Shown one piece after another: positions 15,732-54,822 of a DNA stretch of 64,000 bases (the stretch's first letter is position 1; the number at the start of each line of letters is the position of its first letter). A model generated the notes under the pieces. The model did not search any database and was not told where the DNA came from. It saw only the letters and a list, made by a program, of their open reading frames with translations. The position numbers and the translations under genes were made by a program. Source of the DNA: Shigella phage KRT47; the sequence record MN781580, one strand, 5' to 3'.

Positions 15732-15762
15732 ATGGGGACCGAAAGGTCCCCATATTTTTATT
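15732..15762. terminator. Terminator after gene 54
   Basis: Hairpin GGGGACCGAAAGGTCCCC followed by T-run. Confidence 0.55.
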
Positions 15763-16048
15763 TACGGAATGAAATAAAAGCAGCAACTGAAGCAACTAAA
15801 CTGTCTTCAATATAAACTTCAATTTTTACCGGAGCTTCTGACTCAAATTTACCTGTTACTACACCTTGGAAAATGCTTTCAGTCTGCTGTGGCTTTGAAA
15901 AATTTTCAGAAGGAAAAATTCCGAACTTTTTATCTGTTCCAAAAATTTTGATAAATTCATCATAAACTGCTTCATTAAAAGCATTATCAGCAGGAATAAC
16001 GCCTTCAACTACAAGTTCTTGACCTAAAAAGCGCAAAGAAGATTTCAT
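15758..16048 (-). CDS. Hypothetical protein downstream of alt genes
   Basis: 96 aa ORF preceded by 53-bp repeat element. Confidence 0.5.
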   Translation of the reverse strand: MKSSLRFLGQELVVEGVIPADNAFNEAVYDEFIKIFGTDKKFGIFPSENFSKPQQTESIFQGVVTGKFESEAPVKIEVYIEDSLVASVAAFISFRK

Positions 16049-16056
16049 TTTGTGTT

Positions 16057-16109
16057 CCTCATGTTATGTCAGTAAGACTACTGTAACACAACACGAGGGA
16101 CTTGTAAAC
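16057..16109 (-). repeat. 53-bp exact repeat, copy A (promoter-like GTTTAC plus SD-sequestering hairpin)
   Basis: Identical to 31923-31975; minus strand GTTTAC, 18 nt, TGtTACAGT, then nested inverted repeats CCTCGTGTT/AACATGAGG enclosing the GAGG before the ATG. Confidence 0.8.
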
Positions 16110-18166
16110 TACATCTTGAACTTTTTAGACATTCCGTTGATGTTAACCAAAGAAGCCAAGATTTGAGAAACTTCGTTTTCCTCTTCTTTTGATTCTTCTA
16201 CAAGGAATTGATTAAACCCAGCCATTGGACGAACTTCACCAGTTTCCATTAGATGATCGCCATCATATACCGATTCTTCTAATTGTTCAGAAGGAGGAAC
16301 GATTGTGCCTTCGATTAGATACTTATTATAAGCAGTTTCTTTCATCATGTACGTGCTAACTTTATTAATCTTCAGCAAAATTCCACGCGGTAGAATAACT
16401 TCAGCTTCTGATGGAAATCCTGATAAATGACCTGGAACGATAACTTTAATTCGCTCAGCTCCTTTTATTACCATACCTACGCTAGTTTCAGCATCTTCAT
16501 TCGCATAAGCAGAATGACTGCCCATATGCATTAAATCTTCAGCATCAACAGAACCTTCTCCTTCACCAGAAAATACTGCACCGGAATCATCTAGAGTCAT
16601 ATAGTTTTTACCATGCTCACCGAAGATATTTGGTTTAAGCGATGTTGATACGAAGTTCTTGAAATAAAACATTTTATTTTCAATATTATGACGTAAAGTT
16701 TTAAAGGTAACTTCTTGTCCACGATAAAGCGTAGTTCCTGGAGGAAGAACTGATCCTTTGGCAAAGGCAGAATCCAGCGTCTCGATGTGTTTAATAGCTC
16801 GTTCCATGTATTCTTCACGGGTAGAATCTGGTTTACCCAAGAGGAACGAGTTCATTTCAACATATGAATCTGCACAATAATCTTCAATTACATCAGACTC
16901 AGCCTGAGTTAATCCTTTTGGAGTTACTTCGGTGCTTGCATATTCATATGCCTGAGCAGCAGATTCATTAATCAATTTATAAATGCCATTCATGACAAAT
17001 TGAATAATAGCTACCTTTTCGTCTGGCGTGGCTTTAGAACCTTTAACTAAATCATTGATAATTTTCTTAATAACATCAAAGCTATTAGAAATATTAATGT
17101 CAGCGAGATCGCTCAAAATTTTATCGGTTTTATAATCAAAGAATTCTTTATTCTTTAAATATTCTTGAGAACCTTGATATGTTATATCGCTCTGCAGCTT
17201 GATAGATGGATCACGTAAACGTGCATGGGCCAATGCAATATGATTTCGGAAGCTTTCTAGTTCATAATCGTTAGATTTAAAACGAGAAGCACTTCTCATA
17301 CCACCGATAGCTCCTTTGCTGAAGTTTGAACCAATCTGGATAACGCCAGAGTTCATTGGTCCTTCTGCTTTATATACCGGAACTTTAGATTCAAACTCTT
17401 GATATTTCTTAGCGGCGAAGCTATCACCCTGAAGTGAAGCATCGACAGTAGAATATTGAGCTTGTGCTGCCAATCGACGACTAATTTTAGTTTTCTGAAT
17501 AACAGCTTGATCCGTGCGCTTATCATTTTCTAGAGCAATAGAAGCGGCAACAGCAACAGCTTTAGGAACAGCATTACCTGTTTTAACGTCTACATAAACA
17601 TCACCAACCTTTGATTCAACTTTTGTGAATAACTCAGTTGAAATAGGAGGTACACCTGGAATGTCTTCTAAATTAGCATTTTTACGATAAACCATAATAT
17701 ATGCATACTTTTTATCATAGTCCCAGATTTCCTTTAAAAGAACATATCGACCTGCTCCTTTAGTACGTACTAAACGGTCAGCAATAACTTGCATTTGACG
17801 AGCAGCGCCATTTGTTTTACTTTTTAGTACGCGGAATAGGCATGCGTCAATTTTATACTGTTTCATTGTTTGAAGAGCAGTATCAAAAACCGCATTAATG
17901 ACACCAATTGGATTTCCACCCAAGTTTTTAAGTTTAACTAATGATAGTTTCTCATTAACACCTATCATTACGATATGCATCATTTTATCGCCTGGCTTAA
18001 CGTTTTTATTTGTATCACCGCCAGAGGTGTATGTACAAAATCTAAATCCAGGAAGCACACTTTCTTCACCGGCTTGAATAGCAAAAATTTGAGGTATTTT
18101 ATGCTTAGGATTTAAGTTAACAACCGGCGCCGAAGCGCCGTCAAATAATTCTGTAATAAGTTCCAT
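16109..18166 (-). CDS. alt: Alt-family ADP-ribosyltransferase (capsid-packaged), paralog 1
   Basis: 685 aa; N-terminal MELITE motif (prohead protease site); R-S-E triad LYRGQ / FVSTSL / EAEVILPRG. Confidence 0.85.
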   Translation of the reverse strand: MELITELFDGASAPVVNLNPKHKIPQIFAIQAGEESVLPGFRFCTYTSGGDTNKNVKPGDKMMHIVMIGVNEKLSLVKLKNLGGNPIGVINAVFDTALQTMKQYKIDACLFRVLKSKTNGAARQMQVIADRLVRTKGAGRYVLLKEIWDYDKKYAYIMVYRKNANLEDIPGVPPISTELFTKVESKVGDVYVDVKTGNAVPKAVAVAASIALENDKRTDQAVIQKTKISRRLAAQAQYSTVDASLQGDSFAAKKYQEFESKVPVYKAEGPMNSGVIQIGSNFSKGAIGGMRSASRFKSNDYELESFRNHIALAHARLRDPSIKLQSDITYQGSQEYLKNKEFFDYKTDKILSDLADINISNSFDVIKKIINDLVKGSKATPDEKVAIIQFVMNGIYKLINESAAQAYEYASTEVTPKGLTQAESDVIEDYCADSYVEMNSFLLGKPDSTREEYMERAIKHIETLDSAFAKGSVLPPGTTLYRGQEVTFKTLRHNIENKMFYFKNFVSTSLKPNIFGEHGKNYMTLDDSGAVFSGEGEGSVDAEDLMHMGSHSAYANEDAETSVGMVIKGAERIKVIVPGHLSGFPSEAEVILPRGILLKINKVSTYMMKETAYNKYLIEGTIVPPSEQLEESVYDGDHLMETGEVRPMAGFNQFLVEESKEEENEVSQILASLVNINGMSKKFKM

Positions 18167-18169
18167 GAT

Positions 18170-20266
18170 TTATCCTTGAACGAACTTGTAAGGCATGTTT
18201 GCAATATCTATGCAAGACGCAATAATTCCAAGAGATGATTCTACTTTTTGTTTAACATTTGATGAAACAAATGATGCAAAGTCAACTCTGTCTTCTATTT
18301 CAATATCACCTGTCATTGCAACTACTTCACCAGTTTCCATTAGACGGTCACCGTCATAAATTACTGATTCGGTGAGTTCTTCCGTAGTCATAACTTCAGC
18401 TTGAATGAGTTTTGTATTATTAGATGTTGTTCCGTCATTATTAGAAGCATCAGTTATTTTATTAACTTTGACCATCAATCCTCGTGGTAGAATAACTTCA
18501 GCTTCTGTTGCTATTCCGAGACTTCCTGGATATACAACATTAACTTTATGAGCTCCATCAATTGCCCATCCTATTTGAACTTTAACGTATTCAGGATTTT
18601 CTTTATACGCTCTTATTTCGTTTGGATTAATAGTTATTCCTTCTTCATTTTTATCAACTGTCAATTCATTACGAGCTTCTGGTTCTAAAAGACCAATACC
18701 AGCATGTGTAATTCCAAAACGTCCAAAAATGATAGGAGTTAAAGAAGTAGATACAAAATTTCTGAAATAGAACACTTTATTTTTAACTAGTGCTTCGTAT
18801 ATAGGAGCAGTCATGCTTTGAGCACGATAAACTGTAATGCCTTCTGGTATACGGTCACCATTTTCAAAAGCTGAATCTAAGTTATTTATAGCAGATTCAA
18901 TTTCTTTTTCACTCATTACATCATATCGTTCTGGATTGTAACGACCCAAAAGAAGATTATTGATGTCAGTATATCCTGAACCACAATACTCTCTAATGCC
19001 GCGCTTTTGTGATGGAGTATATTTAGAACCATCACGGGCAATAGTAATATCAATCATTGGACCTGCACCAATTCCAGAAAAGCTGTAAATCATTCTTTTG
19101 AGGAATTTAGTTTTTGCTGCGTTCCAGGAATTTTTAGTCATTTCTTCCCAGACTTCATCTGGCTGTCCTTTACGGGTTTTATTATGTTTATCAAGCCAAT
19201 TATCTTTATATTCTTCAAAGAATTGATTAACAGCTGCTGCGTATTTCTCTAAACATTTTATTGAAGTAGTTGGTTCATTTTTAATCGCATTAAGAATTAC
19301 ATCTTTAATTTTTTCAGAAACTTCATTAACCTCACTTTTTGAAAAGAATTTATAGTCATAATGAAGTTCATCTGCAGTTCCTTCAGCAATAATTTTTGCT
19401 GCTTTAGTTTTAGAAGCCAATGAATTAATTCCAAGTTTCATTTCTTCTGCTTCGGGAATTAAAGGAGCGGTAGCAGGTTTATTGAAATTAGCTGCGGTAG
19501 ATTCATACTTCTGGAATAATTCACTTTCAAATCTAGAAGATTCTAATGATTGACTTTGTGCAATTGCTCTACGGGAAATTTTAACTTTAACGATTACAGC
19601 TTGGTCAGAACGTTTATCATTTTCTTGCGCAATAGATGCAGCAATTGCCTCATTTTTAGTTACTTGAGCTCCAGTATCTTTATTGATATAAACATCACCG
19701 ACCTTCGATTCAACTTTAGTAAAGAGCTCGGTACTAATTTCCGGAACTCCTGGAATGTCTTCTAGTGATACATTTTTGCGATGTATAAGAATATATGCAT
19801 ACTTTTTATCGTAATCCCAGAGTTCCTTAAGAAGGACGTATCTGCCACCTGAACGACTGCGGATAAGTCTATCAGCAATAAGTTGAATTTGACGAGCTTG
19901 ACCAGCAGTTTTAGACTTAAGAATACGGAGCATACAGGCATCAATTTTATACTGACGCATCGTTTGCATTGCAACAGTAAAAACTGAATTGATGTAATTA
20001 ATTGGGCTTGGACCGAGACCTTTTAATTTAGCAATTGAACCTTTAGCAGTTAATGTAAAAGGAACAATATGCATCATTTTATCGCCCATCTTTAAATCGC
20101 GATTAGTATCACCTCCAGATGTATAAGTACATAAACGAAAACCTGGTTGTTCAATTGCGTCATCAACATGAACTGAAAAAATTTGCGGTATTTTCTTCTT
20201 TGGATTTAAGTTTGTAATCGGAAGAGTAGTATCTTCGTCAAATAATTCTGTAATGAGTTCCATCAT
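18170..20266 (-). CDS. alt: Alt-family ADP-ribosyltransferase, paralog 2
   Basis: 698 aa; conserved N-terminal 230 aa with paralog 1, divergent centre, R-S-E triad VYRAQ / FVSTSL / EAEVILPRG. Confidence 0.85.
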   Translation of the reverse strand: MMELITELFDEDTTLPITNLNPKKKIPQIFSVHVDDAIEQPGFRLCTYTSGGDTNRDLKMGDKMMHIVPFTLTAKGSIAKLKGLGPSPINYINSVFTVAMQTMRQYKIDACMLRILKSKTAGQARQIQLIADRLIRSRSGGRYVLLKELWDYDKKYAYILIHRKNVSLEDIPGVPEISTELFTKVESKVGDVYINKDTGAQVTKNEAIAASIAQENDKRSDQAVIVKVKISRRAIAQSQSLESSRFESELFQKYESTAANFNKPATAPLIPEAEEMKLGINSLASKTKAAKIIAEGTADELHYDYKFFSKSEVNEVSEKIKDVILNAIKNEPTTSIKCLEKYAAAVNQFFEEYKDNWLDKHNKTRKGQPDEVWEEMTKNSWNAAKTKFLKRMIYSFSGIGAGPMIDITIARDGSKYTPSQKRGIREYCGSGYTDINNLLLGRYNPERYDVMSEKEIESAINNLDSAFENGDRIPEGITVYRAQSMTAPIYEALVKNKVFYFRNFVSTSLTPIIFGRFGITHAGIGLLEPEARNELTVDKNEEGITINPNEIRAYKENPEYVKVQIGWAIDGAHKVNVVYPGSLGIATEAEVILPRGLMVKVNKITDASNNDGTTSNNTKLIQAEVMTTEELTESVIYDGDRLMETGEVVAMTGDIEIEDRVDFASFVSSNVKQKVESSLGIIASCIDIANMPYKFVQG

Positions 20267-20315
20267 ATCCTCTCTAGTGTTTATTCTATTTATAAAATTA
20301 AAGGCCCGAAGGCCT

Positions 20316-20504
20316 TTAATAATCTATTGGTAAGAGAGTACGATATATTTCAAACTTTGGACCTTTTTCATAGGCATCAAATGTTTCTGTGAATTTATTA
20401 TAAGCATATGCATCTATAAATTCAATCATAATTTGTGATACAGAAGTAGAAACATCTCCACCTTCTTTTTGAGCAACGACAATTGTTTCTAAGTAAGCTT
20501 TCAT
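20316..20504 (-). CDS. Hypothetical small protein
   Basis: 62 aa ORF between ligase and alt, stop overlaps ligase start region. Confidence 0.4.
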   Translation of the reverse strand: MKAYLETIVVAQKEGGDVSTSVSQIMIEFIDAYAYNKFTETFDAYEKGPKFEIYRTLLPIDY

Positions 20505-50166: not shown

Positions 50167-53100
50167 ATGGCTACTTTAAAACAAATACAATTTAAAAGAA
50201 GCAAAACCGCAGGTGCACGTCCTGCTGCTTCAGTATTAGCCGAAGGTGAATTGGCTATAAACTTAAAAGATAGAACAATTTTTACTAAAGATGATTCAGG
50301 AAATATCATTGATCTAGGTATTGCTAAAGGCGGTCAAATTGATGGAAATGTGACTATTGATGGAACTTTACGCGTCAATGGACCAATAAACAACTTTGGA
50401 AATTTTTCTACAAGTGGTACTATTACGGCAAGTAATATTGTTTCTGCTACAGTATTCAGATCAACATCCGGTTCATTTTATACAAGAGCAGTAAATGATA
50501 CATCAAATGCCCATCTTTGGTTTGAAAATACAAATGGATCGGAGAGAGGTGTTTTATATTCAAAACCACAGTCTGAAAATGAAGGCGTAATCACAATGCG
50601 TGTTCGTCAAGGAACCGCAGCAGGGGCTCAAAATTCAGAATTTCATTTCATTTCTACTGATGGTGGTATTTTCCAGGCACGTAAATTAACTGCTTTAACT
50701 TCTATTAGTACACCAACTATTAGTGTTAATTTAATTAATCATGATTCTAAAGCCTTTGGGCAATACGATTCACAATCGTTGGTTCAGTATGTTTATCCTG
50801 GAACCGGTGAAACTAACGGAGTAAACTATCTTCGTAAAGTTCGTGCTAAATCTGGCGGCACTATGTGGCATGAAATCTGTACAGCTCAGACTGGACAAGC
50901 TGATGAAATGTCATGGTGGACTGGTAATACTCCTCAATCTAAACAGTATGGTATTCGTAATGATGGCCGAATAGCTGGCCGTAATAGCCTTGCATTAGGT
51001 ACATTCACTACGGGTTTCCCGTCTAGTGATTATGGAAATACTGGGGTAATGGGTGATAAGTATCTTGTTCTCGGTGACACTGTAACTGGTCTGAAATATA
51101 TTAAACAAGGTGTTTATGATTTAGTTGGTGGAGGTTATTCCGTTGCATCTATTACGCCTGATAGTTTCCGTAGTACTCGTAAAGGTATATTTGGTCGCTC
51201 AGAAGATCAAGGTACAACATGGACTATGCCTGGAACGAATGTTGCATTTTTATCAGTTCAAACACAGGCTGATGAAAACGCTGCTGGAGACGGCCAGACA
51301 CATATTGGCTATAACTCAGGCGGAAAAATGAACCACTATTTCCGTGGTAAAGGCAAAACTAATATTAATACTCAAGAAGGCATGGAAGTTAACCCGGGTA
51401 TTCTTAAAATAGTAACCGGTGCAAATAATGTAATGTTTTATGCTGATGGCGGTATTACATCCACTAAGCAGCTTTCAATATATAATGGTGTATATTTAGC
51501 AGCTAATAATTCTACTGCTGGGCTAACATTCGCTCCAACTACTACAGTTGACGGCACTAAGCAAATTTTGTGGGAAGGTGGTAAGCGTGCTGGACAGAAT
51601 AAAAGCTATGTAACTGTTAAAGCGTGGGGTAATTCATTTAACGCATCTGGCGATCGTAATCGTGAAACGGTTTTTGAAGTAGCTGACGGACAAGGTTATT
51701 ATTTTTATGCGCAGCGTGTAGCTCCTGCATCAGGTTCAACAACTGGAGTAATTCAATTTAGAATTGCTGGAGCATTATTAACCGGTGGGGGTATTACATC
51801 ATCAGGTTCTATTGTTACTGAGTCAAGTTTAGTTGCAAATAATGGATTGTCTGTAAATGGACAAGCTAAATTTGGTGGAACAGCAGATGCATTAAGAATT
51901 TGGAATGCTGAATACGGTGCTATTTTCCGCCGTTCGGAAACTAACTTTTATATTATTCCAACTTTACAAAATGCTGGAGAATCGGGCGGTATAAGTAATT
52001 TACGCCCATTTACCATCAATCTCGCAAATGGTAGTGTTATGATGGGCAATCATACACAAGCCGGAAAAAATTTGCTTACTATTGATAACGTATCAAAATT
52101 CGTTCAAACCGATGTTAGACTTCGAGTTAATATGGATTCTGACGCTATTGTGGTAAATGCTTCATCTCAAGCTGCATCTAACTTTATTCAAGGACGTAAG
52201 GCTGATGTTACAAAATGGTATTTAGGTATTGGCGATGGCGGAAACGTCGTTCGTATGCATAATTACACCTACTCTCACGGTATTGCATTAAACTCTGATA
52301 CTGTCGATATTACTAAGCCTCTTAAAATTAATGATATTCGAATTGGTACTGATGGCAACATCACAGGCGGTACTGGTAATTTTGCCAACTTAAATACAAC
52401 GTTAAATCGTAAAACCAGCGTGGGCGGTTGGGCTGGTAGTTCTGTTGACGGATGGTATAAATTTGCTACGGTAACAATTCCTCAGGGTACTGGTACAGTG
52501 ACTTTTAAGATTTCCGGCGGCGCTGGTTTTAATTTTAAAAGCTATAGCCAAGCTTCTGTTGCAGAAATAGTTCTTCGCACGGGTAATAATAATCCTAAAG
52601 GCATAAACGCTGTACTGTGGAATAGGTCAGACCTGAGTTTTAATCAGATAGCTACTATGAATACATCTGGCGATACTTATGATGTATACGTGTTCTGTGC
52701 CGGTTATACAAATGCATTAGTGGTTGAATATTCCTGTAGTGAAAACTCTTCGGTAACCGTAGTCGGTCTTAACGGAGGCATTCAGCCAGTTGTTGATGCA
52801 TTGCCTGATGGACATGTTGTAGGTAAAACAGTTCGTCTGTTAAATAATATTGGCGGAACTTTCGCAGCTGGAGAATCTAGCATTGTTACTCGCGGTGAAT
52901 ACGTTACTGATAATCAAAGAGGCATGCGTATTAAATCTAACGGTAATAATATCGGTTCTAACGCAGCTTTAATTAGAAATGATGGCGGAAGTTTTTATAT
53001 TTTAGCTACAGATAAAAATACGGAAGAAAAACCCGATGCAGCTAATGGTGATTGGAATGGCTTAAGACCTTTCTCTATTAATATGGCTGATGGTCGCGTT

Positions 53101-53997
53101 GGTATGAACCACGGGTTGAATATTACTGGTGGTGGATTAAACGTTACTGGTGGTAATACTAACTTAGGTAATATTAGCTCAAGACTAGTTTCATACGCCC
53201 GCGCGCCATCTGGATGGGGAGATACCTCAGATGCCATGAAATCTAAAATCACCTTTATGGCAGATCATGGTGATTTATCTAATTCAGGTAGTTATTATCC
53301 TATTGTCGGTGCATGGAGTAACTATGGTTCAGCGGGTTATCGTCAAACCTTTGAGTTCGGATGGGTCGGTTCCGGCACTACAGCTGGTTGGCGCGATGGT
53401 ATTATTCGTATTCGCGGAGATAATGCTAATGGCCAGCAAGCAAGATGGCGCTTTACAATGGACGGTACTTTAGATTGCCCTGGTAAAGTACTGCTACCAC
53501 AAACAGGTGCCTTTGGTGTCAATACATCAAATGGTCTCGGTGGAAATAGTATAACATTTGGTGATAATGATACTGGTATTAAGCAAAATGGTGATGGATT
53601 ATTAGACATATATGCGAACAGCGTACAAGTATTCCGTTTCCAAAACGGTGATTTGTACTCATACAAAAATATAAATGCTCCAAACGTTTATATTCGTTCT
53701 GATATTCGTTTAAAATCCAACTTCAAACCTATCGAAAATGCGCTTGATAAAGTTGAAAAACTTAACGGTGTCATTTACGATAAAGCTGAATACATCGGTG
53801 GAGAGGCAATTGAAACTGAAGCGGGTATTGTGGCTCAAACGTTACAAGACGTTTTACCAGAAGCTGTCCGTGAAACAGAAGACAGTAAGGGTAATAAAAT
53901 ACTCACTGTTTCTTCTCAAGCCCAGATTGCTCTTCTAGTTGAAGCTGTGAAAACACTTTCTGCTCGTGTAAAAGAACTTGAATCTAAACTTATGTAA
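50167..53997 (+). CDS. 37: Long tail fibre distal subunit gp37 with C-terminal intramolecular chaperone-like domain
   Basis: 1276 aa; C-terminal ...[15 protein letters not shown]...VKELESKLM resembles autoproteolytic chaperone domains of T2-type gp37. Confidence 0.85.
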
Positions 53998-54027: not shown

Positions 54028-54822
54028 ATGGCAATTGTAGGTGTTCCTGGCTGGATTGGTGAATCTGCCGTGAATGAAACTGGACAACGTTGGATGGATG
54101 CTGCGATGAAAGCTGTTCGTGTTTCAGTTCCTGGTTGGATGAGCTCAATGGCTGGACAATCTAAAGAAGTATATTACAGTATTGGTGCTAGCAATTCTTA
54201 TAATAAAGACACACTAATAAATTATCTCAAATCTCAAGGTAGTACTCCTGTTGTTGTTACTATTACTGGTAACCTAGTTTCTTCATCTGCAGGGCAACCT
54301 TGCTTAGATTTTCCTAGCTCATTAACTAATGCTTATGTAACGCTTATTATAAATGGCGGTGTAACAGTATATGGTCGCGGAGGACGCGGCGCGCAAGCGG
54401 GAAACCAGGCGGGTGAAGCTGGTGGTACTGCAATTAACAATGGTATAGGTACTCGTCTACGAATCACTAACAATGGAGCAATCGCTGGCGGCGGTGGTGG
54501 TGGTGGCGCCCAATCAACTGATAATGGATGGGGAGGTAAATATGTTTCTGGCGGCGGCGGCGGACGTCCTTTCGGAGCTGGTGGTAATAATGGAGCAAAA
54601 GCTCCGGGTGCATCAGCATCTTTAACATCTCCAGGCGCAGGCGGAAAAATGTATTCCGGCGTTGGATACTATGGTGGTGACGGTGGTAATGTTGGTGAAC
54701 GAGGTAAGGATGCGGTTAGATTGAACGGCTATTCGAACTCACCTGGCGCAGCTGGTAAAGCTGTTACTGGAAACGCTCCAACTTGGACTAAAGTTGGTAC
54801 AATATATGGTGCAAGAGTATAA
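54028..54822 (+). CDS. 38: Tail fibre tip adhesin gp38 (T2 type)
   Basis: 264 aa; multiple glycine-rich motifs (GGGGGGAQ, GGGGGRPFGAGG) separated by variable segments. Confidence 0.75.
   Translation: MAIVGVPGWIGESAVNETGQRWMDAAMKAVRVSVPGWMSSMAGQSKEVYYSIGASNSYNKDTLINYLKSQGSTPVVVTITGNLVSSSAGQPCLDFPSSLTNAYVTLIINGGVTVYGRGGRGAQAGNQAGEAGGTAINNGIGTRLRITNNGAIAGGGGGGGAQSTDNGWGGKYVSGGGGGRPFGAGGNNGAKAPGASASLTSPGAGGKMYSGVGYYGGDGGNVGERGKDAVRLNGYSNSPGAAGKAVTGNAPTWTKVGTIYGARV

Follow-up and report, generated by a model that had tools for sequence, protein, structure and literature searches.

Two tandem Alt-family ADP-ribosyltransferase genes at the alt locus of Shigella phage KRT47, and the relic of the second gene in T4

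Among phage enzymes that enter the cell together with the DNA and reprogram the host, Alt is the classic example, and the alt locus of Shigella phage KRT47 raises the question of why a phage should carry two such genes side by side, and whether the second encodes a working enzyme that is delivered with the first and acts on targets of its own. Here we analyse a 64,000-nt stretch of this phage (sequence record MN781580; the whole stretch is called the window below), in which two adjacent minus-strand open reading frames (ORFs) are almost certainly alt (copy A) and a tandem paralogue, Alt2 (copy B), both encoding Alt-family ADP-ribosyltransferases (ARTs). The account that we consider probable, taking gene identity and mechanism together, is that alt and Alt2 would be transcribed late as one unit from a TATAAATA promoter, and that their products would co-assemble into the head core, be trimmed at both ends by the gp21 protease and enter the host as mature proteins, there to ADP-ribosylate arginines on different host protein sets, the divergent central domain and the ART surface determining which targets each enzyme recognises. 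The part of this account that concerns Alt2 specifically, namely its packaging, its injection and its distinct targets, we hold with less assurance, though we lean towards it.

Family membership and catalytic residues

The original prediction placed two tandem, diverged Alt-family genes at 16109-20266, as minus-strand ORFs of 685 and 698 residues, and both the coordinates and the lengths proved exact. Copy A, alt, occupies 18170-20266 (minus strand; 698 residues from the first ATG, 697 from the second), and copy B, the intact paralogue Alt2, occupies 16109-18166 (minus strand; 685 residues); both are minus-strand ORFs, separated by an intergenic spacer of 3 nt. Their assignment to the family is borne out at several levels. 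PF03496 (ADPrib_exo_Tox) matches copy A with E = 1.9e-37 and copy B with E = 3e-20, both above the gathering cut-off; PHROG 802, 'Alt-like RNA polymerase ADP-ribosyltransferase', matches both over their full length (E = 4.6e-273 for copy A and 1e-255 for copy B); and BLASTP aligns the two copies with each other at E = 6e-162 and 40% identity. Against T4 Alt (682 residues), an NAD+--arginine ADP-ribosyltransferase, global identity is 72% for copy A and 46% for copy B.

The identity between the two copies is unevenly spread, much as had been expected from a shared, conserved N-terminus and a diverged centre: it amounts to 66.9% over residues 1-238, falls to 16.8% over 239-415, recovers to 35.5% over 416-625, and lies at 35.7-43% in the C-terminal tail. 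The N-domain family PF26846 (Tevenvirinae_ADPRT) was not returned for either protein by a direct Pfam scan, and its assignment has indirect support: precomputed matches exist for a protein 99% identical to copy B (P0001) and for every full-length homologue listed, the family is named on two metagenome contigs (L007 and L008) to which we return below, and the N-domain identity to T4 Alt is 67-99%. Neither protein was matched by the PADLOC or NCBIfam models.

Both copies keep the R-S-E triad intact. In copy A, the catalytic arginine of VYRAQ (18824-18826) lines up with the YR in the catalytic region of CdtA, the S-T-S of FVSTSL is placed by alignment at 18743-18751, and the E-A-E of the ExE motif (18497-18505) aligns with E-Y-E of CdtA; in copy B, alignment places the catalytic Arg482 of LYRGQ at 16721-16723, S507-T-S509 at 16640-16648 and E587-A-E589 at 16400-16408 (all on the minus strand). 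The YRAQ or YRGQ, FVSTSL and EAEVILPRG of the copies align with LYRSQ, FVSTSL and EMEVILPRG of T4 Alt, and across 17 aligned family sequences R482, S507, S509, E587 and E589 (copy B numbering) do not vary. The motifs quoted in the original prediction are therefore present, aligned and invariant, and pairwise alignment of the copies with each other, and of each with T4 Alt, leaves neither copy without its catalytic residues.

A sequence search against solved structures gave no match for copy B and weak matches to CdtA/iota for copy A, so we turned to structure prediction and a fold search. The AlphaFold2 model of copy B, with a mean predicted local distance difference test (pLDDT) score of 75.1, has an N-domain of alpha/beta type, helices over residues 250-470, the ART domain at 480-625, and a tail (629-685) that is modelled with low confidence (pLDDT < 50). 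Its catalytic domain is predicted to adopt a C3/VIP2-like R-S-E ART fold, and the best structural match in the fold search with the predicted structure is the arginine-specific ART Vis. From the E-x-E motif and the match of the model to Vis, we infer that both copies probably carry out NAD-dependent arginine ADP-ribosylation of host proteins, the substrates of the Alt family including RNA polymerase alpha and MazF.

Each protein can accordingly be described in four parts: an N-terminal Tevenvirinae_ADPRT module of ~235 residues, which opens with a 6-residue propeptide ending in I-T-E; a quickly evolving helical central domain; a C3/VIP2/Vis-like R-S-ExE mono-ADP-ribosyltransferase domain; and a C-terminal propeptide that follows an L-x-E site. 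Compared with the bacterial ART toxins of the C3/VIP2/iota/Vis type, to which sequence identity is 14-25%, the phage proteins have in addition the N-terminal Tevenvirinae module, the helical domain and the protease-removed propeptides. The route of delivery also differs, the phage enzymes relying on ejection from the head whereas the bacterial toxins rely on secretion or on a binary toxin partner.

The second gene across T-even phages and its relic in T4

The two-gene arrangement is itself already known, and is the ordinary, annotated state of most T-even phages, since hundreds of records annotate both genes, Alt2 has been named, and a 2026 paper has already proposed functional divergence and a wider target range for the pair (PMC13600099), which is very nearly the interpretation given in the original prediction. 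A 4.9-kb stretch spanning the locus has 98-98.6% DNA identity to many Tequatrovirus genomes (340 of the 543 matching phage records match over 80% or more of its length), and most matching phage records annotate two 'Alt-like RNA polymerase ADP-ribosyltransferase' genes there. In GenBank the second gene goes variously by 'Alt2', 'alt.-2', 'alt.-1' and 'Alt-like'; the BASEL annotations use 'ADP-ribosyltransferase Alt2' (bas37_0032, bas38_0034, bas40_0032), and copy B is 99.7% identical to bas37_0032 of Bas37 (KarlGJung). Phage T2 has both genes intact, with its 685-residue Alt2 labelled only 'hypothetical protein, alt.-1'. The BASEL Alt2 genes, this T2 ORF and 'alt.-2' of ime09 are the same gene as copy B (98-99.7% amino acid identity, the same length and the same neighbours), of which copy B is one more allele. 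A literature search combining 'Alt2', ADP-ribosyltransferase and phage found no functional characterisation, and the whole word 'Alt' is absent from PMC12373910 and PMC9958956.

T4 itself does not carry the two-gene arrangement; all that it keeps of the second gene is a decayed relic. Where copy B would lie, it has two hypothetical ORFs, alt.-1 and alt.-2, of 61 and 67 residues, described in a T4 RefSeq note as 'an old duplication of the first part of gene alt'. These ORFs are identical to copy B at 53 of 54 positions (copy B residues 1-54) and at 54 of 55 (residues 62-116), far above their match to T4 Alt; likewise, PHROGs 23015 and 15247, the alt.-1 and alt.-2 families, match copy B much more strongly than copy A. 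An A5 run at copy B codons 54-55 (18003-18007, minus strand) is A4 in T4, a -1 frameshift that splits the relic into alt.-1 and alt.-2. Furthermore, the 9-bp direct repeat ACTTTTTAG (plus strand) occurs in the window in an upstream copy at 17819-17827, which forms one deletion endpoint, and in a downstream copy at 16120-16128, and T4 is without the 1,699 bp between the two, having retained one copy of the repeat (T4 relic stretch L002, 3066-3451). T4 alt.-1 and alt.-2 are thus what a -1 frameshift and a 1,699-bp deletion have left of a complete Alt2. Our literature search did not find the exact origin of these two ORFs described.

A 71-nt probe across the T4 deletion junction occurs in 90 records including T4, and intact copy B occurs in about 402 (at least 80% identity, full length); with T2 also intact, it follows that the two-gene state is the norm and T4 the exception. 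Most natural T-even phages keep a strongly conserved second Alt paralogue that T4 has lost, and work on T4 alone therefore cannot reveal the action of that enzyme.

Both genes are under strong purifying selection. Among five phages (the window phage, ime09, Bas37, Bas38 and Bas40), the ratio of non-synonymous to synonymous substitution rates (dN/dS) is 0.018-0.044 for copy B and 0.011-0.066 for copy A, one example pair of copy B alleles showing 85 synonymous and 8 non-synonymous differences, and every motif is kept in all six phages compared when T2 is included. The amino acid differences that do occur between six close phages cluster in the central helical domain, which holds 12 of the 22 variable sites in copy B and 18 of the 25 in copy A, an enrichment relative to synonymous-only variable codons (Fisher's test, p = 0.002 and p = 0.0006, respectively). 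Owing to this concentration, a role of the central domain as specificity surface fits the pattern of variation.

Insertion data for Bas37, taken from Extended Data Table 7 of the preprint on HIDEN-SEQ (a transposon-insertion screen), further separate the two genes. Alt2 (bas37_0032) has 116 of 164 TA sites occupied, a saturation of 0.707 classed as 'Intermediate', with a mean count of 44.5, against 164 of 179 sites in Alt (bas37_0033), a saturation of 0.916 classed as 'Non-essential', with a mean count of 203.6; the small genes flanking the pair reach a saturation of about 0.95 (HIDEN-SEQ). Because insertions are less tolerated in Alt2 than in alt, these data suggest that Alt2 adds to fitness on E. 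coli K-12. The main text of the preprint does not mention Alt2, and our literature search did not find the differing insertion tolerance of the two genes described.

These results bear on whether copy B might be decaying or catalytically dead, as it is in T4. Such a fate has clear precedent in T4 and the 89 other records that lost the gene by frameshift and deletion; for the window gene it is a very improbable one, given an ORF of 685 residues that is intact in about 400 records and in all six compared phages, with intact motifs, a dN/dS of 0.02-0.04, a predicted ART fold with invariant catalytic residues, and insertions that are tolerated less than in alt. We likewise rejected a pseudogene or an assembly artefact, the ORF being intact in ~400 independent genomes and showing low dN/dS, and the two-gene arrangement being present in T2.

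Processing, packaging and exchange of bodies

If Alt2 is a maintained enzyme, the next question is whether it travels with Alt. About 40 copies of T4 Alt reside in the core of the prohead and in the mature head, and the protein passes into the host on ejection (PMC9026906), such that both its presence in the virion head and its injection are established (PMC9026906, PMC5694885). The gp21 protease of T4 cleaves after L/I-x-E, and the cuts in T4 Alt fall at ITE-6 and LTE-619, leaving a mature protein of 68.2 kDa (PMC5694885); recomputing the mass from these two sites, we obtain 68.2 kDa, equal to the published value.

The MELITE shared by both window proteins had been put forward as a plausible prohead-protease cleavage and packaging signal, and it indeed contains the experimentally mapped gp21 site ITE-6 of T4 Alt (PMC5694885). 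For copy A this site also bears on the choice of start codon. The gene begins with ATGATG (20261-20266), and so does T4 alt, which is annotated from the second ATG to give MELITE; ORF callers and some GenBank records take the first (MMELITE, 698 residues), T4 and others the second (MELITE, 697 residues). Because the T4 start is annotated at the second ATG, copy A is better taken as 18170-20263 with 697 residues, and the numbering of the mapped ITE-6 cleavage agrees with this start.

Measured against the T4 sites, copy A has an I-T-E equivalent to ITE-6 at 20246-20254 (alignment; PMC5694885) and an L-T-E equivalent to LTE-619 at 18368-18376, with a propeptide of 65 residues beyond it. In copy B, the predicted N-terminal gp21 site is the I-T-E at 18149-18157, whose E6 is invariant in the family alignment, and the predicted C-terminal site is an L-E-E at 16274-16282, in the alignment column of T4 LTE-619 and followed by a tail of 54 residues (all four sites on the minus strand). 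This L-E-E directly precedes a conserved S-x-YDGD-x-LMETGE block, and [LIM]-x-E-[SA] stands ahead of YDGD in 8 of the 10 family members checked; moreover, the residues past the predicted cut are the low-confidence tail of the structure model. The gp21 processing motifs are kept at both ends of both copies, and cleavage at them is predicted, giving mature proteins of 70.2 kDa (copy A) and 69.1 kDa (copy B).

The transcriptional context is compatible with joint late expression. A T4-type late promoter box, TATAAATA, lies ~20 nt 5' of the alt start (20287-20294, minus strand), and an identical box is found in T4; its agreement with the consensus suggests late-promoter function upstream of alt. 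A ribosome-binding site for copy B, AAGGA (18173-18177, minus strand), overlaps the end of copy A. Downstream lies alt.-3, a 96-residue DUF5498 gene (15758-16048, minus strand) and the last of an apparent alt-Alt2-alt.-3 unit, followed by a terminator-like hairpin with a 9-bp GC-rich stem (15732-15753), bidirectional in that it scores on both strands, between the convergent gp54 and alt.-3. Because the box stands before copy A, the 3-nt gap and AAGGA join the two copies, and the terminator follows alt.-3, we infer that a single late transcript probably spans alt, Alt2 and alt.-3.

Copy B might instead be made but left unpackaged, acting late in the producing cell like ModA and ModB, which are also R-S-E ARTs of T4 that modify host proteins, and which are small (~200 residues), early-expressed, unpackaged and encoded at another locus. 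The C-terminal tail of Alt2 is unlike that of Alt, and a literature search for virion proteomics of two-Alt phages found nothing relevant, both of which agree with an unpackaged protein. We nonetheless think this unlikely, in view of the MELITE propeptide, the N-domain at 67-68% identity, the L-x-E kept where the C-terminal cut of T4 Alt is mapped, and the position of Alt2 translationally adjacent to alt and behind the late promoter. Natural hybrids of an A-type N-domain and a B-type body, described below, further suggest that the N-domains are interchangeable, which also argues for packaging of Alt2 alongside Alt.

What the two proteins might do differently is best approached through their bodies. 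By position, copy A is the orthologue of T4 alt, sharing with it the locus, the promoter context, the ITE and LTE sites and the R/STS/ExE residues, yet its sequence is mosaic: the N-domain is 99% and the C-terminal propeptide and tail ~95% identical to T4 Alt, with residues ~246-590, covering the central domain and most of the ART domain, about 43-52% identical. At the DNA level this cassette (window 18500-19524) is ~72% identical to T4 or unalignable. The central and ART cassette of copy A is closer to gp200 of Dhakavirus QL01 (77-81%) than to T4 Alt, and a cassette of the window type occurs at no less than 95% identity in 316 phage records.

To compare bodies with N-domains, we split the proteins at the N-domain end. 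Copy A of the window then shares 99% of its N-domain and 52% of its body with T4 Alt, as against 46% and 77-81% with the first QL01 copy (gp200), and copy B shares 44% of its N-domain and 51-54% of its body with the third QL01 copy (gp198). The bodies of copies A and B are 26-32% identical to each other. Because the B body is thus closer to that of the third QL01 copy than to that of its neighbour, the A and B bodies are old lineages, maintained separately since before the split of Tequatrovirus and Dhakavirus. Among co-resident copies, bodies are 26-38% identical and N-domains 57-90%, the N-domains tending to resemble the co-resident copy and the bodies matching by type across genera. This discordance between N-domain and body relationships indicates recombination at the domain boundary, with what would be exchangeable effector cassettes on a conserved module; a literature search did not find such discordance of Alt proteins described.

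Similar arrays occur in other T4-like genera; they too lie between the ligase region and gp54 and share the architecture, and they differ in copy number and cassette types: three tandem Alt copies in Dhakavirus QL01 (L010, 466-6726; co-resident N-domains 68-90% identical), two tandem genes in Biquartavirus SW69-9 (L011, 2549-6426) and two in Moonvirus KM16 (L012, 3696-7987). Duplications of alt were noted by Nolan et al. 2006, including a full-length one in 44RR (PMC1524935). The two metagenome contigs mentioned above carry hybrid single-gene alt loci (L007, 4001-6055; L008, 4001-6061), in which an A-type N-terminus is joined to a B-type body, and the hybrid proteins P0003, P0005 and P0007 have crossovers at about residues 55, 190 and 222. 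Such hybrids are as expected from unequal recombination between tandem paralogues, though they could conceivably be assembly artefacts.

Is the second copy, then, simply more of the first? Copy B could be redundant, supplying an extra dose of the same activity on the targets of Alt, RNA polymerase alpha for example, and the shared architecture, catalytic motifs and processing motifs of the two copies, along with the many phages that manage with a single copy, are in keeping with this. The divergence of the bodies (26-32% identical overall, with central domains at 17%) and their separate lineages across genera (B-type at 51-54% to QL01 gp198, A-type at 77-81% to gp200) make simple redundancy unlikely in our view, as does the unequal insertion tolerance of Alt and Alt2. 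Even Alt proteins at the same locus are already not interchangeable: in the face of the Mokosh type I defence system, phage growth was rescued by T4 Alt but not by Bas37 Alt, whose cassette is of the window type (preprint 10.1101/2025.11.20.689424).

We therefore return to two delivered enzymes with different targets as the preferred account. Packaging, injection and different targets of both copies are supported indirectly, by the processing motifs, the late promoter, the purifying selection and the old body lineages; for Alt2 in particular, packaging, cleavage, injection, enzymatic activity and targets distinct from those of Alt are what these features, taken together, would lead one to expect. 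A number of observations pull in the other direction. Alt2 is dispensable in nature, with the gene deleted in T4 and 89 other records and single hybrid genes in existence; insertions in Alt2 are without conditional effect in two competition sheets of HIDEN-SEQ (log2 fold changes of 0.11 and 0.19), the two sheets being the part of that dataset to which this applies; 8-mers of the TATAAATA type occur in the window at chance frequency (11 found, 9.4 expected); and a literature search for virion proteomics, enzymology or targets of Alt2 found no such data.

A broader picture, which we offer tentatively and with slightly more doubt than belief, is that the T-even alt locus is a polymorphic array of injected effectors, with one to three copies, in which a conserved N-terminal head-delivery module, flanked by propeptides that the protease removes, would carry exchangeable central and ART cassettes that move between genera, and in which Alt2 would have a target of its own. 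By analogy with T4 Alt and Mokosh type I, that target may possibly be a defence system. If this is true, the repertoire of injected ARTs in T-even phages has been under-counted, T4 having lost Alt2 by frameshift and deletion. Finding out what Alt2 acts on would be a modest, well-defined addition to the biology of phage-host takeover and anti-defence.

Neighbouring genes and minor observations

The source phage is a Tequatrovirus, that is, a T-even phage, and both genes lie between gene 30/alt.1 and alt.-3/gp54, which is the alt locus of T4. On one side they are flanked by gp29, gp48 and gp54, on the other by alt.1 (a 62-residue 'Phage_blade' protein) and a 487-residue DNA ligase, and the synteny is as in T4: gp29-gp48-gp54, alt.-3 and, further on, alt, alt.1 and gene 30. 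A stem-loop, AAAGGCCTTCGGGCCTTT, read from the sequence and also present in T4, overlaps the alt.1 stop just upstream of the alt promoter (20300-20317, minus strand).

A second TATAAATA is found within alt, at 18883-18890 (minus strand), ~715 nt 5' of the Alt2 start. It could serve Alt2 as a late promoter internal to alt, but a box of this kind is within chance expectation in an AT-rich window, and we set the candidate aside. A scan for sigma-70 promoters returned 20 against 19.3 expected, a chance level, and we therefore claim no early promoter.

The gene directly downstream of Alt2, alt.-3, has an orthologue in Bas37 (bas37_0031) whose insertion mutants, in the part of the HIDEN-SEQ data that covers this comparison, are depleted when the host is uropathogenic E. 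coli CFT073, as compared with K-12 (log2 fold change of -2.70, adjusted p of 0.02), a depletion that goes unmentioned in the main text of that preprint.

Elsewhere in the window, a distal long-tail-fibre gene of 1276 residues (50167-53997) encodes a C-terminal Peptidase_S74 intramolecular-chaperone domain, and is followed by a 264-residue Gp38 adhesin gene (54028-54822) and then by the T holin. The fibre tip is of the Gp38-adhesin type, and in this presumably unlike the tip arrangement of T4 itself.

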